Positions 18,897-47,156 of a stretch of DNA of 64,000 nucleotides are shown in pieces. Below the pieces are notes generated by a model. The model worked only from the letters and a program-made list of their open reading frames with translations, was not told the origin of the DNA and did not search any database. The stretch is from Escherichia phage JLBYU50. The stretch is taken from sequence record OK272470.1; one strand, written 5' to 3'. Position numbers and translations under genes: made by a program. How positions within the stretch are numbered: the stretch's first letter is position 1; each line of letters opens with the position of its first letter.

Positions 18897-21716
18897 ATGT
18901 ATCCTATTCCTTTATTTATGTCAACAACATCAGCTTCAGTAGTAACAGCTACATCTATAACCACTTCCTCTATTGGTATTGCAATAGTTGGTAGTAAAAA
19001 GCAACTGACATACACAGTTTCACCGGAAGATGGTGCGTTATTTGATATAGCTTTTTCATCTTCAGATAATACCAAAATGGTTATAGATAATAGTGGTATG
19101 ATGGAGTTTGTTGCCGAAGGTGGTTTTGATGCAATAATGACAGCTAAAAATAATTTAGGTGCTGTCTTAACTGATCAATCTGGTGGTTATGCTTCAGAAT
19201 TAAGCGTGTACACTGAAAGTCTATCAGCTATGGATGTAGGCACTACTCAACAGTTGGTTGCTACAATCAGTCCAGAAGGTGCTAAAGATCTTCCAGACAT
19301 GGTAATTACGTACACCACAACAGATCCAGAAGTAGCTACTGTAAGCCCTACAGGATTAATAACTGCTCTTAAAGATGGTAATTGCCGTATAGGTTGTACT
19401 GCAACTTATCAAGGAACAGTGGTGGCCTCTGATAGTTCTTATTTAGGTGTTAATGCTATTCCTGTTATTTCTAATGTAACAGCCGTGGCAAACAGCTATG
19501 GAGACGTTCGTGTTGCTTGGGATGTAGCTGATCCGCTAGATGGTGATACTTATACTGTAGAAGTATTAGATTTAAGTAATAATAGTGTTCAGTGGACTAC
19601 AACAACCACGAATACTTACGCTTACTTTGATATCTCTGACTCTATTCCTCTTTATGGGTTTGCTCCAACATACCTTAAAATTAGCGTTAAGAGCACCAAA
19701 GCAGCAGCCGTTATCTTTAATAACTCAATAGCTACAGATGATTCGTTCATTAAAGAAGTTATTGTTTTTGCTGGACAAGATAACGTAAATGCACACTTTA
19801 CAGAACTATCTGGTGCAAATAAAGCAGCAATGAGTAGCACAACAGCCCGTAATGCATATGCTACGCAACGTGGTTTAGCAAATGCTGAAGTTCTTCCGTT
19901 AAATACAGCTTCTGGATCATCAGCAGCAGATAAATATGCTGACGATAAAGCTGGAACAGGTACACCAGACAACTACTGGTATGATCTGGATAACACAGCA
20001 GATGGGCCATGCTTAACTAACTTTATCACTAAAGTCACACCTTATGCAAGTAAGGTTAAAGCCATTATTTGGGGACAAGGTGAAAATGATGCTGTATCAT
20101 CATCTTCAACTGTTGCAGGTAGATACAGTAACACTACACGTTACCATGATGCTACGATAGCTATCTTTGATAAGATGCGTACAATAGTTCCTGCTTCTCA
20201 AGCAAAAATTGTTTGGCAGATCCTGGGACGTTCTTATTTATATGGTGTAGAAGTTAATGGTGTGGATTGGCAGAAGTACAGAAATGTACAAAGAACCATC
20301 TCTACAGCACGTGATGATGTTATCATTGGTTCTTGGGTAGATGGTGCTGAACGTTACAGTGGTTATGTTTATGAAGAAGGTATTGATGGTCGTATCCATT
20401 ATATTTCTTCTGTATACCAAACAGCAGCTACAAAACTTGCTAAATCAGCAGCAGACGGTACAGACCTAACATCAACGTCACCTGTTTGGGTTGATATGGC
20501 TGTTCCAACTGGAGCAACAGCTACTTCCCAATCTAATCAAGATACAATTTTAGTATGGGATGCTCAAGGCTATAGTAAACACTACTTCCGTAATATTAAC
20601 GTCTTAACAGCATCTGTATTAACTGAACAAACGCTTAATACGAACAGCTATACGTTTACCTATGCAGATCAAGTAGAACAATATGGTTTTGCAGCAGGAA
20701 CTACTATATTTGATGTTGCATATTATGATGAAGCAAATGATGTGTTATCTCCTTTAGTACGTTTTAATGTTAACGTTACAGCAGGAACCGTAGAAGATAA
20801 ACCTGTAGTGATGGATTATGATTTAACACAAGAAACTCTTCCATCAGATGTTAAGGTTAATGGTGGGAACTCTTTTGCTCGTGCTTCTGGAGATACACTT
20901 GTAGCCACTAACACCTTGGTTGCTCCGTTGGAGTATGTTGGCACTACCCCTGTAGGTAGACGTGTAACAGCTAACACAGCTACACAAATTTTTGTCAACA
21001 ACGCCTTAACAAGCGCAAGCCCGTGGGTAAAGACCAACTTAACTGTTTCAACTTCATCTGATAAATCTCCGGCTGGAACTACTGCCAATGTATTCAAATT
21101 AACTCCGACTACAACATCTGGTAGTCATATCTTAACTGCAACATATACTAACGCGTACAACATATATGCCGGACGTAACTGGTCTGCCTCTGTTTTCTTG
21201 AAAGCGAACGGGATTACTAAGGCCAAACTAAGATTAAAAGCAGGAACTGAAGTTAATGAGGGTACTTTTGATTTAGCAGCAGGTACATTTACAGGAAGTG
21301 AAGCTAATATTATATCTATGGGTAACGGTTGGTATCGTGCTATTCTGCATAAAACAGGGATAGCCAAACAGTCCTCCATAAGTTTTGAAATAATTGCCTT
21401 GGATGCAACTGGTGCGGAGATTTTCGCTGGGGATGGTACTAGTAACCTTGCAGTTTGGTTGCCACAGCTTGAAGGTGCTCCTACAGGAGAAACATCAAAA
21501 GCTGGAGCGCCTTATGTCTGCACATATCCTGGAAGTTTAGGAGGAGTATCCTTCACTATACCAAGGAACGGACATACTGGTGTGGATGTTTACTATTCCA
21601 ACGGGGACGTTGTTCGTGACGTATTCTCTGGTACGGCATCTACTTGGACAATAAACTACTCCAGCTTGTACGATTGGGGATCAGTCTTTATTACAGGTTT
21701 GAAATATTACGACTAA
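18897..21716 (+). CDS. tailspike with Ig-like domain and SGNH/SASA-type carbohydrate esterase-like domain
   Basis: Ig-like segment (ATVSPTGLITALKDGNCRIGCTATYQG); FAGQDN and WGQGEND motifs resembling sialate-O-acetylesterase GQSN / WxQGESD. Confidence 0.55.
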   Translation: MYPIPLFMSTTSASVVTATSITTSSIGIAIVGSKKQLTYTVSPEDGALFDIAFSSSDNTKMVIDNSGMMEFVAEGGFDAIMTAKNNLGAVLTDQSGGYASELSVYTESLSAMDVGTTQQLVATISPEGAKDLPDMVITYTTTDPEVATVSPTGLITALKDGNCRIGCTATYQGTVVASDSSYLGVNAIPVISNVTAVANSYGDVRVAWDVADPLDGDTYTVEVLDLSNNSVQWTTTTTNTYAYFDISDSIPLYGFAPTYLKISVKSTKAAAVIFNNSIATDDSFIKEVIVFAGQDNVNAHFTELSGANKAAMSSTTARNAYATQRGLANAEVLPLNTASGSSAADKYADDKAGTGTPDNYWYDLDNTADGPCLTNFITKVTPYASKVKAIIWGQGENDAVSSSSTVAGRYSNTTRYHDATIAIFDKMRTIVPASQAKIVWQILGRSYLYGVEVNGVDWQKYRNVQRTISTARDDVIIGSWVDGAERYSGYVYEEGIDGRIHYISSVYQTAATKLAKSAADGTDLTSTSPVWVDMAVPTGATATSQSNQDTILVWDAQGYSKHYFRNINVLTASVLTEQTLNTNSYTFTYADQVEQYGFAAGTTIFDVAYYDEANDVLSPLVRFNVNVTAGTVEDKPVVMDYDLTQETLPSDVKVNGGNSFARASGDTLVATNTLVAPLEYVGTTPVGRRVTANTATQIFVNNALTSASPWVKTNLTVSTSSDKSPAGTTANVFKLTPTTTSGSHILTATYTNAYNIYAGRNWSASVFLKANGITKAKLRLKAGTEVNEGTFDLAAGTFTGSEANIISMGNGWYRAILHKTGIAKQSSISFEIIALDATGAEIFAGDGTSNLAVWLPQLEGAPTGETSKAGAPYVCTYPGSLGGVSFTIPRNGHTGVDVYYSNGDVVRDVFSGTASTWTINYSSLYDWGSVFITGLKYYD

Positions 21717-21748
21717 TAAAAAAGGAGCCTAATGGCTCCTTTTCTTTT
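21715..21748. terminator. bidirectional terminator between convergent structural (+) and replication (-) blocks
   Basis: ggagcc-taat-ggctcc hairpin flanked by A6 upstream and TTTTCTTTT downstream. Confidence 0.7.
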
Positions 21749-21751
21749 ATC

Positions 21752-22183
21752 TTAATCAGTGAAAATTACGCTTACATCTTCTTTAGAAAAGAGTTTATGA
21801 TCTTCACCTTTTGTCTCAAGAGTTTCATACAGGTTAAGAAGTTCTGAAACATCTTTCTCTACCAGTTTCTTCAATGTTGCAATTTTCTGTTTGCGATTCT
21901 TAATACGTTCAGCTACAACCTTACGTTGGTATCCAGCAGTACGATAACCTGAGAAAGTTACACCAGTGAGACTTGCAGTTACAGGATCGTAATGACGTTC
22001 AATCTGAAATTTATTAAAAGGTACAGCGTCATCACGAATAATCTTCCCGCCATTACTTACTTGACGAAGACCAGTAACTTGTTCTAGTCGTGCCATAGAA
22101 ATCTTTGGAGACAGACCAGAGTCTAGGTTCATACCATTGTTAATCAGTGCTTTCAGGGTGATTTTGCTGTTCAGTGTACTCAT
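21752..22183 (-). CDS. hypothetical protein
   Basis: RBS ggagga before ATG at 22183; 5' end overlaps 3' end of methyltransferase gene by 44 nt. Confidence 0.5.
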   Translation of the reverse strand: MSTLNSKITLKALINNGMNLDSGLSPKISMARLEQVTGLRQVSNGGKIIRDDAVPFNKFQIERHYDPVTASLTGVTFSGYRTAGYQRKVVAERIKNRKQKIATLKKLVEKDVSELLNLYETLETKGEDHKLFSKEDVSVIFTD

Positions 22184-22871
22184 TTAGTCGTTCCTCCGCT
22201 TGCTTAAAAATATTTACATCGGCTTCACAGCCTAAGTATTCTCTACCTGTTAAAAGTGCCGCAACTTGTGTTGTTGCACTTCCAGAGAAGAAGTCTAAGA
22301 CTACATCTCCTTCGTTGGTGTGTATATTAATAAGGTCACAAAACAAAGTCAAGTGTTTTTGTGTTGGATGAAAACGATCTGCTCCTTGATAGATAGGATA
22401 CTCAAACACACCCTTATGGTAGGAAGCATTGAAGGTTGGCTTAGAACCTTTAACACAAACAATAGCCATTTCTTTAGCGTTACTAAGGTAGTTAACACCA
22501 CTGTTGATGGGTACAGGGTTTGTTTTAATCCATTCAATAGTACGGAACATACGAAAACCAAGCGGTTCAAGGATTTCACGTAGCTCCTGGATCTTCCAGA
22601 TATCATACCAAACTATGCAAGTACCACCTTTTCTAAGCACCCTGTAGGCTTCTTTGAATACTTCTTTAAAGTAAGGAATATCTACAACATCCCAATCACC
22701 AAAGTTGTAAGATACACGGAATCTATCCGTATCTTTTCCAGTAGGCTCTCCAGATTGAAAATTTGTGTCACGAGAAATAGCATATGGTGGGTCAGTAAGA
22801 ATCAAATCTACACTATTGCTTTCGAGGGTTTGCAGGTAGTTTAATGCGGTGTTGTTTACAAATTCGCTCAT
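22140..22871 (-). CDS. DNA N6-adenine methyltransferase (beta-class, orphan)
   Basis: N-terminal DPPY catalytic motif and later VLDFFSGSATT SAM-binding motif; no adjacent restriction endonuclease. Confidence 0.75.
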   Translation of the reverse strand: MSEFVNNTALNYLQTLESNSVDLILTDPPYAISRDTNFQSGEPTGKDTDRFRVSYNFGDWDVVDIPYFKEVFKEAYRVLRKGGTCIVWYDIWKIQELREILEPLGFRMFRTIEWIKTNPVPINSGVNYLSNAKEMAIVCVKGSKPTFNASYHKGVFEYPIYQGADRFHPTQKHLTLFCDLINIHTNEGDVVLDFFSGSATTQVAALLTGREYLGCEADVNIFKQAEERLNEYTEQQNHPESTD

Positions 22872-22884
22872 TATATCTCCTTCA

Positions 22885-22910
22885 AAGAAAAGGAGCCGTT
22901 AGGCTCCTTA
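22885..22910 (-). terminator. rho-independent terminator downstream of SSB-like gene
   Basis: ggagcc-taac-ggctcc hairpin followed on - strand by TTTTCTTTG. Confidence 0.6.
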
Positions 22911-22931
22911 TATTCACACAATATTTAACTA

Positions 22932-23879
22932 TTAGAAACAGTGCAGGAAGTTTCGACCATACTGCAAACCAATAGGAGCAAATGGGATATCATCATCGAA
23001 ATCTTGAACAACAGGTTCTGGTTCTTTCGGTGCTGGCTCTTTCTTCTCTACTTTTTTAGTTTCTTTCTTAACTTCTTGTACTGGGGTAGACATTCCACGG
23101 ATAGCAGCAGCTACTTTATCAGACAAAGCAAGAACTTCACGAGCAGCTTCAATAATCTCTTCTGCCGTTACAGTTTTACCTGTATGATCACGACAAGCGT
23201 TAAGAATTGCGTGTCCAACTGAAGCACCAAGATCATAATCAGTCACATCAACGCCACGATCTTTAGCAATTTCTGCTTTCAGAGTAACAGTTGCAGATTG
23301 TACCACACCAGCCAAGTCGAAAGCATCACCTTTCACACCAGCACGTAGAAGCTCCAGAGCGCCGTTTACAGCGTGTCCTGTTTCAATCCCTACGGTATCA
23401 CGTTTTTTGTAGTTAGGCTTGCTACCTTCGTTATTAGATGGCTTATTTCCACCTTTTGAAGAAGATTGTGCTTGCTGAACACCTTCTGTTGAAAGAATAG
23501 TGATTTTACCTTTAGAGGAATTGTAGTATGTTTTGCCATTCCATTCAGAAGGTTTAACATCCATAGTTAGTTCTACACCTTTTTCGATAGTAACCCACTT
23601 GTCACCATCTTTAACTTGCAGGTTTTCATGTTCTGGATGCAGTTTAACTTCACCTAGGCTAACCCAAACACCTTTATCATCAGCACTAGCACCTTTCTCT
23701 TTAATAAGCAGAGATGCTTTGTGAGTTGATTCAATTTTCTTATCTGGCTGACCTGCAACCTTAATATAAGAGACTTTCATTTCATCAAACTTATCCAGTT
23801 TGACATATTCAACGATACCTTCAGCCCAGAATGCTTCTTTTTTAGTACGACGGTCGATTTCAGAATTAATTACTGGCAT
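22932..23879 (-). CDS. ssb: single-stranded DNA-binding protein-like
   Basis: Gly/Ser/Asn-rich linker then acidic DFDDDIPF motif (bacterial SSB C-terminal tip), here followed by 15 more residues. Confidence 0.6.
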   Translation of the reverse strand: MPVINSEIDRRTKKEAFWAEGIVEYVKLDKFDEMKVSYIKVAGQPDKKIESTHKASLLIKEKGASADDKGVWVSLGEVKLHPEHENLQVKDGDKWVTIEKGVELTMDVKPSEWNGKTYYNSSKGKITILSTEGVQQAQSSSKGGNKPSNNEGSKPNYKKRDTVGIETGHAVNGALELLRAGVKGDAFDLAGVVQSATVTLKAEIAKDRGVDVTDYDLGASVGHAILNACRDHTGKTVTAEEIIEAAREVLALSDKVAAAIRGMSTPVQEVKKETKKVEKKEPAPKEPEPVVQDFDDDIPFAPIGLQYGRNFLHCF

Positions 23880-25068: not shown

Positions 25069-27648
25069 TCAGTGACAACTAGCCCATGAGTTACCAACAT
25101 CGTAACCAGCAGTGAGAGGTACATTAAGATTGTAATACTCACCAGCTTTATTAACAGCAATAGATGCTAATTCTCCAGCACGACTGTAGGCTGTAAACCA
25201 ACCACCTTTCGGAGATTCATGTACGTTAGCCCAAATCTTGCCAGTACGTTTCTCTTCCTCTTCTTTCCAGGTATTAACTTTATCCAAACATTCTTTATCA
25301 ATTTTCTTTTGTTCTTCTGGATCATCAACTTGAGTCCAACCTAAAGATTCTTTAGAGAACCATTTAAAATGCACCAGATCACGAGTTACTTCAAGCTGTG
25401 CTTCATCGTGGTATGCAATCATTTGTTGAACGAATGACTTATTTTTCCAGTCATCAACAAAAAAGTCAACAGCTAATCCTTCTTCTTCGATAAGATCATC
25501 GTAGATAACCATTGCTCTTTTTGCACAAATAACACCACCACTCTGGAACAGAGAGTTAAGTATTGCGTGTGCAGATCGTGTAGGTACTTTCCTTCCATCA
25601 ATACCAAGAATGTATTTCTTACCTGTTTTAACCCAAAAATCATGCAGACGTTCTTTAAGAAGAGCAAGAGGTTTTGCAGCTTCCCAGAAAGCATCGTATA
25701 CAAGCTGTCCTGTATACATATCACTACCAATGGTTTTTGCTACTTTTGCAGCTTGAGCACCATAAGTAATACCATACTTAACAGATTTAGCAGGGCTTCG
25801 TTCAAACTTACGACCAATAGTATCAGAAATACGTCGAGCCATCATTGTATGAACATCATTAGGTTTTTCCAACAATAGAGCATTACAATATTCGTGTGGT
25901 TCCTGCTCGTACCGCCAACAGTAGTGTGATTCTATTTTTGCCTCAAGAGAATCAAAGTCATAACCAATTTGGAAGTATTTTGGAACTTCTACACCAAATA
26001 AGTTACGCATTTCATATCCGTACAGAGATGTTACACGTGGGATATTTGCTACTAACCTATGTTTCATACGAGATGTAGCTGCATCACACGTTGCAGCAGG
26101 AGTTGGTATACGACCATCAGCCCTTACTGCTGCCAGATAACCTTTATCGTAATCCTCTTCATCTTCTTCCCAATCAGCACCACCCCCTAAAATAGAGTTC
26201 CTACGGTGTTTATACGTAAGATACTGCACAATCTGCGTAGCATAAGGAAACTTTTCACCTAGTGCTTCCAAGTTAGGACAAATATCTTTCTCTTGCCCTT
26301 TTGTAAAGGAAGGGTTAGTAAGCACTTTAACACCACGACCTTTAGCTTTAGCAATACGATCTCTTAGTTTCCATTCCAAAGTTTCTGGTGTGCACTCCAG
26401 ATGATCACATCTGTCCTGGCAGAAGTTAGATGCTAATGTTTGATCAACGTAGTCACGAATAGCTTTCTCCATTTGTGCTTCATCTTTCTTAATCTTAGTG
26501 CCAGATTTAAGAGTGATATCTTTATCTTTATATTCAGATGGACTCCAACCTAAACCAACTAACCAGTTTTTAATATGTGTAGTGTCATCTAAAGTAGCAG
26601 GTACTGTAGGATCACAAATAGGTTCTTCTGCTGGAATAGGGAGTTTAAACTCTTTACCTAATGCAAATAACCACCAACCATCTTCTTTTTGTACAAGTTC
26701 ACCAGAATGTTTCTCTGCAAACTTTATCATGTTACTTGAAGGTTCACCATTCTTTTTAAACTGTAGTTTAGGTGGAATGAATGATTTCAAATAACCTTTA
26801 GTAGCAGGTTTGGGAGGTAGTACAGGTTCTGCCTCTAAACGACATGCTTCCATTCGAGCATCCAGATCACGAATATTATCTTCTGCTTGTTTCATATTGA
26901 AAGCAAAGCCACGGTGCTCTTGACGTGTAATAATATCAGCTACACGTTGTTCTAAGTTAAATGGTTCAGACCACTTATTATAATCACCCCACTCTTCCAT
27001 CAAATAACGGAACACTGCGGTGTTAGCTTTGTTATCGTAAATACAGTAATACAGCATATCTGCTGCAAATGTTTTAAATCTTTCAGTTTCAGGAATGTTT
27101 TTTCTAAAATCAATTTTAACATCCCCTCCAGCTTTCTTAGATAACTCTGCCAGACTATGACCACCGAAGCGATCAGGGTTTAGTGTCTTACTTAAGATCA
27201 TAGTATCACAAATTTCAATGTTACTATTACCCCAAGTATTGTACTTAATACTATAGTTGAGTTTAAAAAATAATTTAATTGCCAGTAAGTCGAAGTTAAT
27301 GATGTTGTGTCCAACTACTTTGGTAATTTTATAGTTTGAATTACCTTTAAATTTACCTGTTCCATTTACAAAATCAGGAAAATCTTTAAGAGGGAAATGG
27401 GTATATTCTAAATGCTCATATTCCTCCAGTCGGTATTCATACTTTCCGTCAGTCTCAATATACGGACGACCATCGAAAAGATATTTATCACCATCATGGA
27501 AAGCAATAATCTCTCCAGTATCATGACTTTCGCACACAATACAGTGCATTGCAAAACTATCTTTTAAACGATATGGACTTGCCAAGTAATCTACACTTTC
27601 GTCATTAAGCAAGTTGTTACTTTCAATGTCGAAAGTAAAAGCTCCCAT
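25069..27648 (-). CDS. DNA polymerase, family A, with 3'-5' exonuclease domain
   Basis: Exo I FDIESNN; motif A-like GYDFDSLEAKIE; motif B-like KSVKYGITYGAQ; motif C MIAYHDEAQLEV. Confidence 0.8.
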   Translation of the reverse strand: MGAFTFDIESNNLLNDESVDYLASPYRLKDSFAMHCIVCESHDTGEIIAFHDGDKYLFDGRPYIETDGKYEYRLEEYEHLEYTHFPLKDFPDFVNGTGKFKGNSNYKITKVVGHNIINFDLLAIKLFFKLNYSIKYNTWGNSNIEICDTMILSKTLNPDRFGGHSLAELSKKAGGDVKIDFRKNIPETERFKTFAADMLYYCIYDNKANTAVFRYLMEEWGDYNKWSEPFNLEQRVADIITRQEHRGFAFNMKQAEDNIRDLDARMEACRLEAEPVLPPKPATKGYLKSFIPPKLQFKKNGEPSSNMIKFAEKHSGELVQKEDGWWLFALGKEFKLPIPAEEPICDPTVPATLDDTTHIKNWLVGLGWSPSEYKDKDITLKSGTKIKKDEAQMEKAIRDYVDQTLASNFCQDRCDHLECTPETLEWKLRDRIAKAKGRGVKVLTNPSFTKGQEKDICPNLEALGEKFPYATQIVQYLTYKHRRNSILGGGADWEEDEEDYDKGYLAAVRADGRIPTPAATCDAATSRMKHRLVANIPRVTSLYGYEMRNLFGVEVPKYFQIGYDFDSLEAKIESHYCWRYEQEPHEYCNALLLEKPNDVHTMMARRISDTIGRKFERSPAKSVKYGITYGAQAAKVAKTIGSDMYTGQLVYDAFWEAAKPLALLKERLHDFWVKTGKKYILGIDGRKVPTRSAHAILNSLFQSGGVICAKRAMVIYDDLIEEEGLAVDFFVDDWKNKSFVQQMIAYHDEAQLEVTRDLVHFKWFSKESLGWTQVDDPEEQKKIDKECLDKVNTWKEEEEKRTGKIWANVHESPKGGWFTAYSRAGELASIAVNKAGEYYNLNVPLTAGYDVGNSWASCH

Positions 27649-27713
27649 TCTCCCTCCTTAAAATATTTCTAAAGTCTTAATTTGTTAATACTGTACCATA
27701 AATTAATTGTTTT

Positions 27714-27736
27714 GTAAAGGGGCTTTCGCCCCTTCT
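27714..27736 (-). terminator. stem-loop downstream of ORF 27739..28134
   Basis: aagggg-ctttc-gcccctt hairpin; weak U-tract. Confidence 0.45.
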
Positions 27737-27738
27737 TG

Positions 27739-28134
27739 TTATTTATTGTCAGCACTTAATTGTACTTTAATAAGGCAATTAGGGACACCATTGGTATTTC
27801 TCAAGCCTACACGTTCAATTTTAACTGTCCCTGTTAAGCCACTAAAAGTGGAAACAATGTTATTAATGTTTTCATCCTTACTAGCGATATCAAGAACAAC
27901 TTTATCACTAACATTTTTCAACATACGATCTACAAGCTCTCCCACAAAACCACTGGTAGTTTGAATGAGAAGGTATAGACAACCATCCTCAAACCACAAA
28001 TGTTCACCATAAGCATAACCGTATGGTTCTAACTCCGATCCATCTTGAAATTTAAACTTAGCAATAGTTTTCGTATAATCATACCCTAACGCAGAAGGGG
28101 ATACCCCATAGAGGATATTTTCGTTGTCTTTCAT
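27739..28134 (-). CDS. hypothetical protein between polymerase and primase-helicase
   Basis: Start reassigned to ATG at 28134 (RBS aaggagag); longer track ORF would overlap helicase gene. Confidence 0.5.
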   Translation of the reverse strand: MKDNENILYGVSPSALGYDYTKTIAKFKFQDGSELEPYGYAYGEHLWFEDGCLYLLIQTTSGFVGELVDRMLKNVSDKVVLDIASKDENINNIVSTFSGLTGTVKIERVGLRNTNGVPNCLIKVQLSADNK

Positions 28135-37671: not shown

Positions 37672-37871
37672 TATACACCAACCTTAAGATCAATTATAGC
37701 CAAAGTGGTTTCAGAGTGTGTTTGCTCGTCTACAGGTGCAGTCATGTGATAATACAAAAAATCTTCGGCATCATACCAATCTGACTCTTGACCTTGTTTC
37801 CAACCATCAATGAAAGCATCTTCCATAATTGTTTGTAACTCTTCACGAGTTAAGTGAATATCTTTACTCAT
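37671..37871 (-). CDS. hypothetical small protein
   Basis: 66 aa, start/stop overlaps. Confidence 0.4.
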   Translation of the reverse strand: MSKDIHLTREELQTIMEDAFIDGWKQGQESDWYDAEDFLYYHMTAPVDEQTHSETTLAIIDLKVGV

Positions 37872-38104
37872 TACACATTCTCCTCTTTTACCAATTCCAT
37901 CGTTGAACTATCAAAACCATCTTTAGAAGAATAGGTATAGACAGAACGTAGTTCTCGCAGGACAGTGAATACATTGGGATCATCTAACCAAGCATCCTGG
38001 AGGAGAACATAACGATCTTCATTGTCGTACTGGACAGCAATCATAGAACCAGACAGTTTGTAAATTTTAATATTCATAATATATTTCTCCTTAAAGTAGA
38101 CCAC
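37871..38104 (-). CDS. hypothetical small protein
   Basis: 77 aa. Confidence 0.4.
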   Translation of the reverse strand: MVYFKEKYIMNIKIYKLSGSMIAVQYDNEDRYVLLQDAWLDDPNVFTVLRELRSVYTYSSKDGFDSSTMELVKEENV

Positions 38105-39194
38105 GTTTAACAGTTTGAATCATACCATCTTCAAGAGATTGCACTTCTTGAATGTAATCAATACGCGCAGCACGGGCTTCAGTGTTGATTCGGTTAGTTT
38201 CTTCCAACATTTTAACTAAGTTTTCTTGATCGCGACGTAATGTCTCAATATCCAATACTTGACGATTAGCAAGTTGTGTAGCTTCAATTTGGTTTTGTGC
38301 CGCCAGATCACTACCCATTGCAATAGCAGCATTAAATTCATTCAGCACATTGTTCTGTGTATCGGCTGCTTTCTTCTGGCGTAGACTTTCAATATACATA
38401 GAAAAGTTTGCAGAGTAAGCAGGGATAACATTATTCACAATATTACGGGCTGATCGCATCAAACTTGCAGATACTTTCTGCATACTTTGTACACGTGGCC
38501 CCATCTGAACACACAGTAAGCGTAGGGCTTTCAGGTCTGCAATACGAATTTCAAGCAGATCCATAGTATCACGAGTACGTTGACGCTCTTCTACCTCATT
38601 TTCAGGCAGTGTATTAAGGCGAACTTCTTCTTTTTCATACGTAGCTGTTAGAAGCTCTATATCTCTGTTTAAGCTAAGAGCATATTTGGCAATAGCCTCT
38701 TCTAAACGTTGCAGATATCGTAAAGAATCTTCTTCTTTTTTCAAGTCTGTTTGGAGTGTCTTTACCAAACCTTCAATACGATTATTGATGGTGTCAAATT
38801 CTCCAAACAAATCTTCTTTCATACCTAATACTTTCTTAACTAGTTTACCTAAGCCTTTAGATTGCTTAATAGAGTTAGGATCAAGTTGCTTTGCTTGCTT
38901 AATAAGTGCAGTTAAACGTTCACTCATTTCATCCCCCTGAGATGAACGCTGGTGTTTAAGCACTTCAGCATTAAGGTTACGAAGAGTAAGTCCTGCATCA
39001 GCACCAACTTGTTCAATCTCTTCACGAGACATTGGAGGCAGCATTTGTACAGGTCGTGCAACAGCAGGGGCATATACAGGGCTTGCATCCATAGCACTTG
39101 GAGCAAATAAAGACTTACTTTTTTCTGTTGTTGCCGTGAATACACTCATTTCAGACGGTTTGCTTTTTACGGCACTGATAAAAGGACTGGACAT
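38091..39194 (-). CDS. TelA-like (toxic anion resistance family) coiled-coil protein
   Basis: 367-aa all-helical protein; assignment rests on overall pattern and genomic linkage with TerD/TerC/vWA genes. Confidence 0.45.
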   Translation of the reverse strand: MSSPFISAVKSKPSEMSVFTATTEKSKSLFAPSAMDASPVYAPAVARPVQMLPPMSREEIEQVGADAGLTLRNLNAEVLKHQRSSQGDEMSERLTALIKQAKQLDPNSIKQSKGLGKLVKKVLGMKEDLFGEFDTINNRIEGLVKTLQTDLKKEEDSLRYLQRLEEAIAKYALSLNRDIELLTATYEKEEVRLNTLPENEVEERQRTRDTMDLLEIRIADLKALRLLCVQMGPRVQSMQKVSASLMRSARNIVNNVIPAYSANFSMYIESLRQKKAADTQNNVLNEFNAAIAMGSDLAAQNQIEATQLANRQVLDIETLRRDQENLVKMLEETNRINTEARAARIDYIQEVQSLEDGMIQTVKRGLL

Positions 39195-39262
39195 TCAATT
39201 TCCTCCATATTCTTTAGTAGATGGTGATACCTCTGTACCACCATCATAACACAAATTAAGTA

Positions 39263-40114
39263 TTAAACAAACATATCTAAATAATTTGTAGTAATAAACG
39301 CCCCATCTGCTTCCAGATTAACATAACCAGTAGCATTAGTGGTTAAGAAATCCAGATCGAAGGACTCTTTAACACCCCGTACCTCAACACGAGAGATATC
39401 GAATACAGGTAGTGTAACAGCCTCTTCGTGCAATACCGTACCTTTGTAGGTTGCCTTAATGATAAACTTGATATTACCCGTTCCAGCATCATACAAAACA
39501 CTTTCAAACCCTTTGAGAGTATATTTATCACCAGAAGTGAAGTGCAAAGTTGCTTTGTTTACAGTACGTTTTTTACGAGGAGTTCCTTTCACACGTTTAT
39601 GATCACTACGTTTTTTGTACTTAGGAATGAATACAAACGATACATTCTGAAGAAAGGTATCAACATCAAGGATTTTAATATCCTCTGTTGCAGCAAATTT
39701 TGAAGTCGTTGCATCAAAATGCTTTTCCCTGCGATCATACATAAAGATATCAAACCGATCTTCTAAATCAAACAAATTATGTATTTTAATTTCAGAATGC
39801 TTGCGCATTGCAGCAACCTTGAACTCTTCAAAACGTGGGTGTTCTACAAGTTCTTCAAGTTTTACACCAAAGACAGTATATTGCTTCGGAGTTTTTTCTG
39901 GTGTTGGCATTACAGAAGCATAATCCCCGATTGCGCTCTTAAAGCAAAATTGTTCTTGACCTGTATTTTTACCAACGAATTTACAGTATTCATCATTGTG
40001 CATACTTTCCTTAGTAGTACCAACAAACTCAAAACCATCTTTATTCTTCTCAAGAATTTCTTGATTAAAGATCCAACCTTCCAGGCGATACACTTTACCA
40101 ACTTCTAGTTTCAT
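39263..40114 (-). CDS. hypothetical protein
   Basis: 283-aa ORF. Confidence 0.5.
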   Translation of the reverse strand: MKLEVGKVYRLEGWIFNQEILEKNKDGFEFVGTTKESMHNDEYCKFVGKNTGQEQFCFKSAIGDYASVMPTPEKTPKQYTVFGVKLEELVEHPRFEEFKVAAMRKHSEIKIHNLFDLEDRFDIFMYDRREKHFDATTSKFAATEDIKILDVDTFLQNVSFVFIPKYKKRSDHKRVKGTPRKKRTVNKATLHFTSGDKYTLKGFESVLYDAGTGNIKFIIKATYKGTVLHEEAVTLPVFDISRVEVRGVKESFDLDFLTTNATGYVNLEADGAFITTNYLDMFV

Positions 40115-40149
40115 CTGTTTCTCCTTCTTATTTAATCTGTATTAAATTA

Positions 40150-40740
40150 TTAACGACGACGTGAGCTACTAAAACTACGTTTCGACGAAGAATAACTTTT
40201 CGAAGACTTACTATAAGAGCTAATAGGACTTGAGTAAGACTTACGAGCAGAGTAATCACTATTCACTTTTGTTGTTGATGGGCGTGAATACGTTTGTACA
40301 CTTTGCTGCTTAATTGTGTTTTGTTTAGTGGTTGTATATGTATTTCCTTGTTTATCATAAAAACTATGCTTTTGTGTTGTATATGCTTTGCTATTAGTTG
40401 TAGGAGCAGCGTTGTTATTGATAATTGTTGTATTGCTACCGCCATCTCTATAACCACCACCGCCACTATTACCACTCAACATATGACCAAGAAGCATACC
40501 TGTAGCAAACTCACCTACACCAGAAGAACCACTGCCGCCTCCTTGCACAACAACTGTTGAAGGTTGTGCAGGTGCTGCTTGAACAACTTGAGGTGCAGGT
40601 TGATTTACATATTGTTCATCTACCATCTGATTTGGTGTTTGTTGGTAACGTTGATTTTGTACATTTTCAGAATCATCACAACCTACCAGCAATACACTAC
40701 CTAAAACAACTGCAACAATAAAAGATTTAATGTTTTTCAT
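40150..40740 (-). CDS. outer-membrane lipoprotein with Gly-zipper-like and Ser/Tyr-rich regions
   Basis: Start reassigned to ATG at 40740; signal peptide with lipobox LLVGC; GGGSGSSGVGEFATGMLLGHMLSGNSGGGG. Confidence 0.5.
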   Translation of the reverse strand: MKNIKSFIVAVVLGSVLLVGCDDSENVQNQRYQQTPNQMVDEQYVNQPAPQVVQAAPAQPSTVVVQGGGSGSSGVGEFATGMLLGHMLSGNSGGGGYRDGGSNTTIINNNAAPTTNSKAYTTQKHSFYDKQGNTYTTTKQNTIKQQSVQTYSRPSTTKVNSDYSARKSYSSPISSYSKSSKSYSSSKRSFSSSRRR

Positions 40741-40933
40741 TTGTAACCCTCTCATTTAAAGTCTCAACACAATTTTTAAAATCCCTAGAGAAACAATACA
40801 TCTGTTCTCCGTTCCTGTTGATAGTAATTGTATGGTTATCAATATATGTTGTCAAGATAAAAATCAAACAAAACAACCCTAGAGCAAAACAAATATTTTC
40901 AAACAGAATCCAAAGAACACGTAAAACCACCAT
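40727..40933 (-). CDS. small membrane protein
   Basis: 68 aa with hydrophobic LGLFCLIFILTTYI segment. Confidence 0.35.
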   Translation of the reverse strand: MVVLRVLWILFENICFALGLFCLIFILTTYIDNHTITINRNGEQMYCFSRDFKNCVETLNERVTNEKH

Positions 40934-40946
40934 CAGATCACCTCAA

Positions 40947-40968
40947 TAAAGCCCCCGAAGGGGCTTAA
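40947..40968 (-). terminator. stem-loop downstream of TerC-family gene
   Basis: aagcccc-cgaa-ggggctt hairpin. Confidence 0.55.
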
Positions 40969-40972
40969 TGAA

Positions 40973-41950
40973 TTAAGCAACAGCCTGGTCTTCTTTTTCA
41001 GGGAAGATTAAACTTGCAATAACACCCAACCCAAGAGTACCTAACACAATATACATACTGATCGTCGGATCAATGTGTGCTGGTAGGAAACTCACTTTTG
41101 CGTGCAGAGTTTCTGCAAACGGGTGATACATCAGTTTTACACCCACAAATACCAGGACTACGATAACTGCTTTCTCCAGATGAACCAAATACTTCAGTGC
41201 AACACTAAGAACAAAGAACAGAGCGCGTAAACCTAAGATTGCACAGAGCATCGAAGAGAACACCAGCAGAGGTTCTTGTGTCACTGCAATTACTGCTGGA
41301 ACAGAGTCTACTGCAAAGATTACGTCAACCATTTCCATTACAAACACACAAACCAGAGCCGGAGTTGCTACACGAACACCATTTTTGATTGTGAAGAACT
41401 TCTCACCATCCATCTGATCAGATACAGGGAACAGCTTACGAACAATGCGAGTAGCCCAGTGTTTAGAGTAATCAACTTCTGCATCATTATCTCCAGCGAA
41501 TACCATTTTAGCCGCACAGAAAAGGATGACAGCACCGAAGAAGATATTAACATACCAGCCCAAACTCAACAAGTAAGTACCTACTGCTACAAACACACCT
41601 CGGAAGACAATCGCACCTGCAATACCCCAAAGTAGAATCTTGTGTTGCAAGTGTGTGCTTTTAATACCAAAACTTGCGAATACTGCCACAAATACTACTA
41701 AGTTATCTACAGAAAGAGATTTCTCCAACACATACCCACTCAAGAACAAACTCGCAAAATCAGCACCGTGTTGGAAGTATACAAAACCATAGTAGGCTAA
41801 TGATACCCCAATCCAGAAAATTGACCAACCAACTGCCGATTTAAATGAAATCTCTTTGTTTTCTCTGTGTCCAAAGAAATCAATACAAATCGACAACACT
41901 AAAATACCCACTAAAACAACCACATCAATAATTGGGAAACCCAGTTGCAT
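40973..41950 (-). CDS. TerC-family integral membrane protein
   Basis: Multi-TM 325-aa protein with duplicated signature LEKSLSVDNLVVFVAVF and FAVDSVPAVIAVT. Confidence 0.75.
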   Translation of the reverse strand: MQLGFPIIDVVVLVGILVLSICIDFFGHRENKEISFKSAVGWSIFWIGVSLAYYGFVYFQHGADFASLFLSGYVLEKSLSVDNLVVFVAVFASFGIKSTHLQHKILLWGIAGAIVFRGVFVAVGTYLLSLGWYVNIFFGAVILFCAAKMVFAGDNDAEVDYSKHWATRIVRKLFPVSDQMDGEKFFTIKNGVRVATPALVCVFVMEMVDVIFAVDSVPAVIAVTQEPLLVFSSMLCAILGLRALFFVLSVALKYLVHLEKAVIVVLVFVGVKLMYHPFAETLHAKVSFLPAHIDPTISMYIVLGTLGLGVIASLIFPEKEDQAVA

Positions 41951-41968
41951 TCTTTTCTCCTCTTTAAT

Positions 41969-41987
41969 GCGGAGGACAATCCTCCGC
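41969..41987 (-). promoter_or_regulatory. hairpin in 5' leader of TerC-family gene
   Basis: gcggagg-acaat-cctccgc stem-loop immediately upstream of the RBS gaggag. Confidence 0.35.
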
Positions 41988-42027
41988 TCTATGTCTTATA
42001 CTATAAACTGTTTTTAAAGAAAGTCAA

Positions 42028-42327
42028 CTAGTTCAGTTCTGTAATTTTAAGTTTATCTTCTTTGTTAATGATAGGGAAAGCTACAGCATCACCTACGTCA
42101 TCAATAAAGCAAATAGCAAGGCCACCTTCCACTTTGCTAATCTGACCATTAAAGGCGTGATACGGGGCAGGAACTTGATCTCCATCTTCAAGGAGAATAG
42201 CCTCGTAAACCTTGCCGATAGTACAATCACGAGTGTTTCTAAATTTTTCAAGCACTTCAACATTTACTTTACGCATATAAAATCCTCTCTTATTTGTTAG
42301 ATTGAAAGATACCACGGAGTACCGCAA
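42028..42327 (-). CDS. hypothetical protein
   Basis: 99-aa ORF. Confidence 0.45.
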   Translation of the reverse strand: MRYSVVSFNLTNKRGFYMRKVNVEVLEKFRNTRDCTIGKVYEAILLEDGDQVPAPYHAFNGQISKVEGGLAICFIDDVGDAVAFPIINKEDKLKITELN

Positions 42328-42496
42328 GAATGAACGTCACACAGACTACACTCCAAAACGTTACAGGAACATGATGCCAGTCTAAGCCGATAATGTCAAT
42401 CATATAATTGTATGCTAAAAGCAGTAGCCAACTAGGGATTAACACAATCAAGAACACAACAATAAAACAACCTAATACTGCTAAAACACCTGCCAT
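42290..42496 (-). CDS. small two-helix membrane protein
   Basis: 68 aa, two hydrophobic helices. Confidence 0.4.
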   Translation of the reverse strand: MAGVLAVLGCFIVVFLIVLIPSWLLLLAYNYMIDIIGLDWHHVPVTFWSVVCVTFILAVLRGIFQSNK

Positions 42497-46205: not shown

Positions 46206-47156
46206 TTAGTCAAGGTTTTTGGTAATACGTGTACAACCGTCAGAAGTCAAACCGTCAACTTGAGTTTCCCAAGTACCATGAATATTTCGGAACAATGTTG
46301 TTACACCTTTTGGTTCATTAATAATGATTGCCATAACAAGTTTAGGATCGATAACAGACATAATCTTTTCCTCAATACCCTCTGTAATAACATTATTGCG
46401 CACAATATTAATTGCATCTTCTTGTACAGTAAGAGCACTTACGTTCTTAAGAGTATATACCTGCTGCGTAGTGTAAATGATACGAACATAGCTTACAGAA
46501 CGAGTAGGCACAGGTTTACGCGGTCGGCGAAAACGTGGTTTTGGTGAAGATTCAGTCTTACTTTCATTTTTTGAATAATACTCCTCAAACAGTTTAGTAA
46601 ATGTTTTTACATCAACTACAAATCGATCTTTCCTATATGGAGAATTCTTATGTGCACCATTAATACCACTGTTTTCATCGAAGAAAGTAATGTTTTCTTC
46701 AGTTGAATACATTAGATAATGATCTGCATTTTTCCAATGTGGTTGTGGACAATGAGGATTACAAACGGAAAGCAAGTAATTAATATTTTCTTCCGTGGCC
46801 TCAGTATCCAGGAAACACGTATTATGCACAGTCAGTTGTACTTTTTCAGCCATATCTTTTTCTTTATCCTCTTTAGCAAGATATTCAGTACGAATAATCT
46901 CCAGAAAACCTTCAGGTGTTACTTCCATAAATTTATATTCAGGATGAAGCTCCATATATTCAAATCCACAACCATCTAATTGCTGTAGAAAGTTAGGGTA
47001 GAAGAACAAGTCATTAACACTATGAATCAGATCATTGATTTCTGCTTCAGATGTGTAACCAAAACTTTTGTGAATTGCTTCGTTAAGAATATGCAGGATA
47101 CCCATCTCTTCTGCTGCTTTTTTAACTTCCAGTTTATTAGCGTAAAATGCAATCAT
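46206..47156 (-). CDS. hypothetical protein
   Basis: 316-aa ORF. Confidence 0.5.
   Translation of the reverse strand: MIAFYANKLEVKKAAEEMGILHILNEAIHKSFGYTSEAEINDLIHSVNDLFFYPNFLQQLDGCGFEYMELHPEYKFMEVTPEGFLEIIRTEYLAKEDKEKDMAEKVQLTVHNTCFLDTEATEENINYLLSVCNPHCPQPHWKNADHYLMYSTEENITFFDENSGINGAHKNSPYRKDRFVVDVKTFTKLFEEYYSKNESKTESSPKPRFRRPRKPVPTRSVSYVRIIYTTQQVYTLKNVSALTVQEDAINIVRNNVITEGIEEKIMSVIDPKLVMAIIINEPKGVTTLFRNIHGTWETQVDGLTSDGCTRITKNLD

Follow-up and report, generated by a model that had tools for sequence, protein, structure and literature searches.

NlaIII and IceA1 are described as CATG endonucleases of the ICEA family (Xu et al. 2002, as cited in PMC13340068 and PMC2816704), and a virus-encoded CATG pair is known from PBCV-1, in which the methyltransferase M.CviAII (A251R) accompanies the endonuclease R.CviAII (A252R) and N6-methyladenine protects the viral DNA (PMC7248222). 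Here we analyse two overlapping genes in a 64,000-nucleotide (nt) stretch of Escherichia phage JLBYU50 (OK272470.1; this whole stretch is hereafter the window), which comes from a phi92-like E. coli phage (genus Justusliebigvirus, Stephanstirmvirinae) and whose region around the pair is 98-99% identical to that of other Justusliebigvirus phages, such as vB_Eco_J-01, Antha, BME3, alia and PaulScherrer. The first gene, a methyltransferase of 243 amino acids (aa) corresponding to Phi92_gp155, occupies 22140-22871, and the second, a 143-aa gene corresponding to Phi92_gp154 (phrog_20244) and hereafter called the partner, occupies 21752-22183; both lie on the minus strand, as do all features of the pair described below. 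The partner is a homologue of ICEA/NlaIII-type endonucleases that lacks their HNH half, and we consider it reasonably probable that this virulent phage carries, in the two genes, a diverged restriction-modification operon that serves as a self/non-self module for CATG.

Of the described systems, NlaIII/IceA1-HpyI resembles this locus in several respects: the N-terminal ~85 residues of gp154 are homologous to the corresponding half of ICEA, the methylase is adjacent and co-oriented, relatives of gp155 pair with full-length ICEA proteins, and the genomes concerned carry a CATG-specific signature. It differs in that gp154 has no counterpart of DHK...N...CxxC...CxGCYWY, with a 43-residue helix instead, and in that the phage genes are carried by virulent phages. 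CviAII would be the closest functional analogy, a case of restriction-modification logic turned by a virus on non-self DNA, although the endonuclease is active there whereas the phage pair has no nuclease domain, and the two are likened by function only. Set beside type II restriction-modification systems at large, M/R adjacency and descent from an M-R pair are shown for the phage pair, and the nuclease domain is missing. M1.HpyAVI ('DpnA', 5hek/5hfj) is like gp155 in its motif order, small size and lack of a large target-recognition domain, but the similarity is only moderate (E 1e-28), and the reported target of M1.HpyAVI is of GAGG type, differing from CATG. The Dam enzymes of T4, T1 and other phages are likewise phage-borne methyltransferases dependent on S-adenosylmethionine (SAM) without a complete endonuclease gene alongside; they are, however, alpha-class enzymes (PF02086) directed at GATC, whereas gp155 is beta-class, has no accompanying GATC signal in the window (observed/expected 0.98) and is locked to a partner derived from a restriction enzyme. 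The literature searched gave no account of gp154, of the gp155-gp154 pairing or of the CATG rule described below, and what appears to be new here, judging from sequence, is a system that derives from restriction-modification but whose R protein has no nuclease. What has been annotated as a 'methyltransferase + hypothetical protein' pair in every phi92-like coliphage, several of which are under development for therapy, may thus be re-read as a restriction-modification-derived module.

Relationship of the pair to ICEA/NlaIII-type systems

Searched against Pfam, the window's gp154 has no match at E <= 0.01, so that it falls below the PF05315 threshold, and only one of 119 family members touches ICEA (E 0.054). 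The relationship is carried by P0155, a 206-aa protein recovered by the exhaustive protein search, which is a PF05315 ICEA member (E 1.6e-16) and also matches the gp154 profile. Alignment of the gp154 family profile (A5) to P0155 with hhalign gave a probability of 97.6% (E 4.7e-12) and paired gp154 aa 15-81 with P0155 aa 21-88, and alignment of the same profile to seven full-length ICEA proteins gave one of 96.6% (E 5e-10, 85 columns). At the level of single sequences, the window's gp154 and P0155 are 37% identical over 76 aa by BLASTP (E 1e-10), and when P0155 was in turn searched by tblastn against 50,697 phage records, the only matches were gp154 genes. On these alignments, homology between gp154 and ICEA/NlaIII-type CATG endonucleases extends over the first ~85-90 residues of the former and the N-terminal half of the latter. 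Within the window the ICEA-N-like domain, taken over the hhalign range, covers 21905-22162 (aa 8-93) and is presumed to be a CATG-recognition module; the partner's most conserved loop, RQVSNGGKIIRDD (22028-22066, aa 40-52), aligns to the ICEA segments 'KIVGNGCKIRDD' and 'TNGCQWARSD'. Residues invariant across the gp154 family are G23, S25, E34, R40, Q41, S43, N44, G45, R50, D52, F56, Y65, F77 and G79.

Beyond the aligned part the two families part company. P0155 goes on C-terminally with a Cys/His stretch, CINC...DHKH...CKQCN, of the kind seen in HNH nucleases, and the alignment of full-length ICEA proteins (A10) holds C115, D127, H128, K129, N146, C153 and C156 invariant together with CxGCYWY; none of these has a counterpart in gp154, which in their place has a 43-residue amphipathic helix (21809-21937, aa 83-125). 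An AlphaFold2 model of gp154 built from a 119-sequence alignment (pLDDT 89.6; an alignment of 5 sequences gave 54.7, and the model used throughout is the 119-sequence one) comprises an alpha/beta domain at aa 1-80, the long helix at aa 83-125 and a short terminal helix. From this model the long helix is presumed to be a dimerisation coiled coil. A Foldseek search of the model against the Protein Data Bank (PDB) gave no match at E <= 0.001, a search of the gp154 profile against PDB sequences gave coiled-coil noise only, and inspection of gp154 by eye for PD-(D/E)XK, GIY-YIG and HNH motifs found none convincing. A structural search of BFVD gave one weak match (probability 0.98, E 0.046), an 'IceA1' protein of a giant virus.

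The methyltransferase itself is readily classified. The earlier note on this DNA had reported DPPY and FxGSxxT motifs in beta-class order, and this is borne out: motif IV, DPPY, lies at 22782-22793 (aa 27-30) and is invariant in the alignment of relatives, and the SAM-binding motif I, FFSGSATT, follows at 22269-22292 (aa 194-201), placing motif IV N-terminal to motif I. The hidden Markov model (HMM) classification that the note had proposed as a check assigns gp155 to PF01555, N6_N4_Mtase (E 1.9e-30; 106.9 bits against a cut-off of 26.7; aa 21-227), and the protein also matches PHROG 67, 'DNA methyltransferase'. Among solved structures the closest to it is M1.HpyAVI (5hek, E 1.1e-28; alignment over aa 19-238), and weaker matches include N4-cytosine enzymes such as 8s9m. 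By motif order and family, gp155 is a beta-class DNA methyltransferase, and the DPPY motif together with best matches to adenine enzymes indicates that it probably modifies N6 of adenine. Two labels given to it in database records fail: 'Dam-like', used in BASEL phage records, is at odds with the beta-class order, the lack of a PF02086 match and the GATC ratio in the window, and 'type III Mod', used in several records, with the length of 243 aa, the lack of a target-recognition-domain insert and the lack of a Res gene within +/-20 kb.

The nearest methyltransferases outside the clade with truncated partners adjoin full-length ICEA enzymes. In a 47-kb phage-like contig (L099), P0155 follows, with a 4-nt overlap, a 249-aa PF01555 methylase whose full-length identity to gp155 is 46%. 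Among Firmicutes, a PF05315 protein (E 1.8e-35 and 3.1e-30) comes directly after the methylase in Oscillibacter sp. MSJ-31 and in a metagenome-assembled Ruminococcus genome, the identity of these methylases to gp155 by tblastn being 54-56%. Three IMG/VR loci (L028, L030 and L034) have the same order of methylase then ICEA protein, and in a fourth (L029) the ICEA gene lies upstream; across the two genomes and these four loci, the ICEA-paired methylases are 51-56% identical and their partners match PF05315 at 1e-25 to 1e-35. Taken together, the homology of the partner to ICEA and the pairing of its methylase's relatives with ICEA indicate that the window pair corresponds, gene for gene, to an M-R operon with a nuclease-less R, and the target of gp155 is most likely the adenine of CATG on phage DNA. 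Literature searches found no methylome of phi92 or of a Justusliebigvirus and no restriction digests of their DNA. These relationships also bear on two earlier statements about the gene, namely that it is an orphan and that it has no restriction endonuclease partner. The first does not hold, as the partner is an ICEA N-terminal homologue and the methylase's relatives adjoin full-length ICEA. The second is true on the surface only: within +/-20 kb of the pair there is no annotated or recognisable complete nuclease and no Res gene, but the overlapping open reading frame (ORF) is itself a truncated endonuclease homologue.

CATG content and distribution of the module

Among the 50,697 phage records, Pseudoalteromonas phage J2-1 is the sole carrier of the partner outside Justusliebigvirus. 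Searching 5.8 billion proteins with a profile recovered 266 members of the gp154 family, nearly all of 125-143 aa and none of them named, HMMER run exhaustively on 1.84 billion representative proteins yielded 46 gp154 clusters only, and a pattern-based scan of bacterial and archaeal genomes (185,579 species) found no partner gene. Among loci with sequence upstream of the partner, a methylase 63-86% identical to that of the window lies directly upstream of it in ~15 lineages, overlapping it in all but one; the neighbourhoods of the module differ between these lineages, mostly falling among RNR, ThyA/ThyX, DHFR and glutaredoxin genes. Methylases at most 59% identical to the window's (62 IMG/VR loci) have no partner of the gp154 type, and the methyltransferase of the gp155 clade was never seen without one. 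The converse arrangement, a partner without a methylase, occurs in two lineages, J2-1 and the phi92-like IMG/VR contigs L101-L103. In a neighbour-joining tree of partner proteins these partner-only lineages nest among the methylase-linked ones, which implies that the methylase was lost at least twice.

Both partner-only lineages are devoid of CATG. With expected counts taken from a second-order Markov model on both strands, J2-1 has 0 CATG in 142,204 bp against 348 expected, and a whole-genome tblastn of J2-1 found no homologous methyltransferase. Each of L101-L103, in which the partner directly follows gp156, has 0 CATG in 20.4 kb against 60 expected, with no methyltransferase within +/-10 kb; these contigs are 81-87% identical to one another, and CATG is the sole 4-mer missing from them. 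Between L101 and L103 the partner gene has a dN/dS of 0.07, indicating strong purifying selection, and by this measure of sequence divergence the partner-only gene is functional. As a control, H101, the nearest cultured relative of J2-1 and one without the partner, has 89 CATG against 144 expected. All two-gene loci of at least 10 kb keep CATG, at observed/expected ratios of 0.14-0.51, and the window has 124 sites against 244 expected. Across the two lineages, then, presence of the partner and absence of the methylase go with a genome without CATG, a rule that is checkable in any genome collection.

Other patterns of site usage were seen in these genomes. CCGG is avoided in both Pseudoalteromonas phages, with 0 sites against 95 expected in J2-1 (L089-L091) and 3 against 40 in H101 (L109), which is a host-lineage signal of restriction avoidance independent of the CATG effect. 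Along the window, the CATG ratio is about 0.33-0.51 over 1-48 kb and 0.75-1.02 over 48-64 kb, and the longest CATG-free stretches are 37743-42370 and 20145-23627, the second of which includes the methylase-partner cassette. Of the palindromic 4-mers, GTAC shows the strongest depletion in phAPEC8, of the sister genus Phapecoctavirus (0.31), and in the L099 contig (0.41); its ratio in the window is 0.79.

A proposed self/non-self module and its alternatives

If the pair is a diverged restriction-modification operon, gp155 would come from the beta-class subfamily whose members are the cognate methylases to ICEA/NlaIII-type endonucleases, and would mark the phage's CATG sites as self. Its partner would retain nothing of the endonuclease but the N-terminal domain, presumably the CATG reader, the Cys/His HNH half having been lost, and the long helix would probably dimerise the protein, as a palindromic site would require. 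In this scheme gp154 would act on unmethylated CATG in a manner not tolerable on the phage's own DNA, so that carriers would have either to methylate CATG, as in the window, or to purge it fully. The probable target is non-self DNA, whether the host chromosome or that of competing phages: the module usually sits among genes of nucleotide metabolism, which suggests host shut-off or nucleotide scavenging, and the CviAII precedent suggests action on host DNA. Candidates for the source of harm in a protein with no recognisable nuclease are a roadblock, recruitment of a nuclease, or an unrecognised chemistry, and expression would proceed from a position after a terminator, with no promoter belonging to the pair and a strong Shine-Dalgarno sequence for each gene. 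The more specific proposal, that the gp154 family is a new restriction factor free of a nuclease domain, a dimeric reader of unmethylated CATG used against host or rival DNA whose carriers need either the methylase or a CATG purge, we put forward tentatively, as something short of an even chance.

Several observations weigh against reading the pair in this way. No His or Cys is invariant across the gp154 family and no nuclease domain is recognisable in it, which leaves the damage required by the model without a known chemistry. Only two independent lineages carry the partner without the methylase. Depletion of CATG in the window is modest (0.51); phages free of the module have ratios of 0.62-0.71 (0.71 in phAPEC8). 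Not all ICEA-family enzymes may read exactly CATG. Moreover, M.NlaIII may be of a different methyltransferase class, and the link between gp155 and CATG accordingly rests on gene context and not on orthology with M.NlaIII.

The main alternative, which we consider unlikely, is that NlaIII-like CATG restriction enzymes in the hosts of these phages select separately for CATG methylation, for CATG avoidance and for a decoy or dominant-negative copy of the N-terminal domain, which would work through dead heterodimers or site masking and would leave the phage's own DNA unharmed. Such a pressure would account equally well for the homology to ICEA and for the association with CATG depletion, the avoidance of CCGG in J2-1 and H101 demonstrates that host-driven site avoidance is real in that lineage, and inactive truncated iceA1 alleles are described as common in H. 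pylori (PMC13340068). However, H101 keeps CATG though it avoids CCGG as J2-1 does, and a strict rule that absence of the methylase means zero sites is not what shared pressure predicts. A protein that masks sites or opposes a nuclease would furthermore be useless in a genome with no CATG, yet the partner-only gene has both the low dN/dS and a promoter of its own (see below), and the tight M->R layout is that of an operon inherited from a restriction-modification system. Were the partner nonetheless a decoy, it would represent a new anti-restriction principle.

We think it improbable that the partner is instead an accessory subunit with no activity of its own on DNA, one that directs a small methyltransferase without a large target-recognition domain to its DNA, sets its specificity or regulates it in the manner of a C protein. 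The constant company that the partner keeps with this clade's methyltransferase would fit such a role, as would the minimal size of the closest solved relative, M1.HpyAVI (232-240 aa), and the modelled architecture of the partner, in which a putative DNA-binding domain is joined to a long helix that may be able to dock on a protein. Related methyltransferases pair with full-length ICEA nucleases, however, and so need no extra subunit; no fusion of methyltransferase and partner was found among the 1.84 billion representative proteins; and an accessory role leaves unexplained both the CATG purge and the selection acting on the partner in J2-1 and L101-L103, where there is no homologous methyltransferase.

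Least probable is the model of the earlier note, an orphan anti-restriction N6-adenine methylase that overlaps an unrelated ORF, the overlap giving translational coupling: orphan methyltransferases are common in phages, and the overlap and strong Shine-Dalgarno sequence are real, but the partner is homologous to a restriction enzyme, the module is kept across unrelated phages, restriction-modification systems act strongly on the phi92-like group, the overlap length is unconserved and no RNA structure links the two translations. The anti-restriction role in particular is not supported: the BASEL study reports an exceptional susceptibility of phi92-like phages to restriction-modification systems (PMC8594841), so that gp155 is not a broad shield, and the CATG pattern suggests that gp155 guards the phage against its own partner, not against host enzymes.

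The restriction-modification reading makes the DNA of phi92-like virions a predicted non-substrate for NlaIII, SphI and CviAII, and experiments should be straightforward, as Justusliebigvirus grows on E. coli K-12. More generally, the pair makes testable the question of what role the recognition domain of a restriction enzyme takes once its nuclease is lost. If the partner does attack non-self DNA, it would be a compact phage weapon built on restriction-modification logic, possibly with a new chemistry.

Gene overlap, expression and neighbouring genes

The partner had been reported to begin 44 nt inside the methyltransferase with a GGAGGA ribosome-binding site of its own, and both coordinates and conservation agree with this. 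The overlap runs from the partner ATG to the methyltransferase stop (22140-22183), and the partner Shine-Dalgarno sequence (22192-22197) lies inside the methyltransferase codons A-E-E-R, 8 nt before the ATG. Three diverged metagenomic phi92-like phages (L005, L006 and L007), with methylases 78-86% and partners 55-66% identical to those of the window, keep the partner ATG and an AGGA/GAGG core within the methylase codons A-E-(E/D)-R-L-(N/D), and across the family the partner N-terminus aligns from residue 1-3, including in members with no methyltransferase upstream. Met18 was considered as a start that would avoid the overlap and was rejected, having no Shine-Dalgarno sequence and leaving conserved residues N-terminal to it; the ATG inside the methyltransferase is, on this comparative evidence, the true start.

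The portion of the methyltransferase that extends over the partner appears to carry little constraint. Its C-terminal tail (22143-22178, aa 232-243), which runs in the -1 frame over the N-terminal codons of the partner, is unconserved and lies beyond the homologous fold, the 5hek/5hfj alignment stopping at about aa 231-238. Over 14 shared overlap codons, comparison with relatives gives 8-10/14 identical in the partner frame and 3-7/14 in the methylase tail, and substitutions are fewest at partner codon position 2, which is methylase codon position 3. In L005 and L007 the tail is 9 aa longer than that of the window, giving a 71-nt overlap, and across lineages the overlap measures 4, 14, 17, 20, 23, 35, 41, 44 or 71 nt, with one 30-nt gap; given this variation, the 44-nt value is incidental. 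The 141 nt of RNA around the partner start are less structured than shuffled versions (z = +1.9; 197/200 shuffles fold at least as well), and no conserved or covarying RNA structure was found near that start. Coupling through RNA structure was therefore rejected, the ribosome-binding site of the partner lying in unstructured RNA, which gives no indication of translational coupling of the unmasking type. Of the suggestion that expression of the methylase may be coupled to that of the overlapping gene, the association survives, since the two genes are adjacent in ~15 lineages, but a device in the overlap does not, its length ranging from -30 to 71 nt, the tail being unconstrained and no RNA unmasking being indicated. 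From these sequence comparisons, the overlap looks like a by-product of the methylase frame continuing past its fold.

The methyltransferase has a Shine-Dalgarno sequence, AAGGAG, at 22877-22882, recognised in the sequence and in the phi92 annotation. An intrinsic-terminator-like hairpin (22890-22909), annotated as a terminator in phage Paula and also present in L006, L019 and L021, separates it from gp156, and a bidirectional terminator hairpin common to the convergent tail-fibre gene closes the cassette at 21720-21743 (both strands). The two share the stem GGAGCCnnnnGGCTCC (21724-21739 and 22892-22907), which has 2 copies in 64 kb against 0.03 expected and flanks the methylase-partner cassette. 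An interpretation of these paired hairpins as scars of cassette insertion was rejected, the same hairpin being found 3' of gp156 in relatives without the methyltransferase, where it is a local terminator. No sigma-70-like promoter was seen in the window between the upstream hairpin and the methyltransferase (22872-22931), and the nearest strong promoter is at 24334-24305 on the minus strand. In the partner-only loci L019/L021 (2858-3000), a strong TTGACG-17-TAATAT promoter following the gp156 terminator drives the partner gene. Judged by these promoter predictions, the window's methylase and partner would have to be expressed by read-through or from a phage promoter that escaped recognition.

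In the sister genus Phapecoctavirus, phAPEC8 has neither gene, and its gp156 homologue abuts the terminator and tail gene. That genome encodes an rV5-type N6-adenine methylase, phAPEC8_00188 (46222-47016 of its record, L100), adjoining the DNA polymerase, which is absent from the corresponding place in Justusliebigvirus (window ~27650-28100); the sister genera thus carry different methylases.

ORFs of HNH homing-endonuclease type adjoin the module in three separate lineages, in the gap between gp156 and the methylase in L006 (269-740), in the gap between gp156 and the partner in L020 (2368-2874), and two genes upstream in J2-1 (L002, 3153-3731). They may reflect a homing-site preference only, or may supply a nuclease in trans.

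The SSB-like neighbour gp156 (22932-23879, minus strand) contains the canonical SSB C-terminal tip DFDDDIPF, after which the Justusliebigvirus protein has a further 15 residues, APIGLQYGRNFLHCF; every relative examined (phAPEC8, L005, L006, L007 and L019-L021) stops exactly at ...(D/E)IPF*. Internalisation of the tip would be expected to alter the binding of partner proteins.

Two further observations concern the Justusliebigvirus records. The PaulScherrer DNA polymerase is a 3315-nt gene with an annotated intein (L098, 24558-27872), and the window polymerase (25069-27648, minus strand; 859 aa) has no intein. Four records labelled 'Campylobacter phage', A150 (MG065639), A145 (MG065645), C3 (MG065656) and A110a (MG065689), are near-identical to E. 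coli Justusliebigvirus genomes and are probably mislabelled or contaminants.

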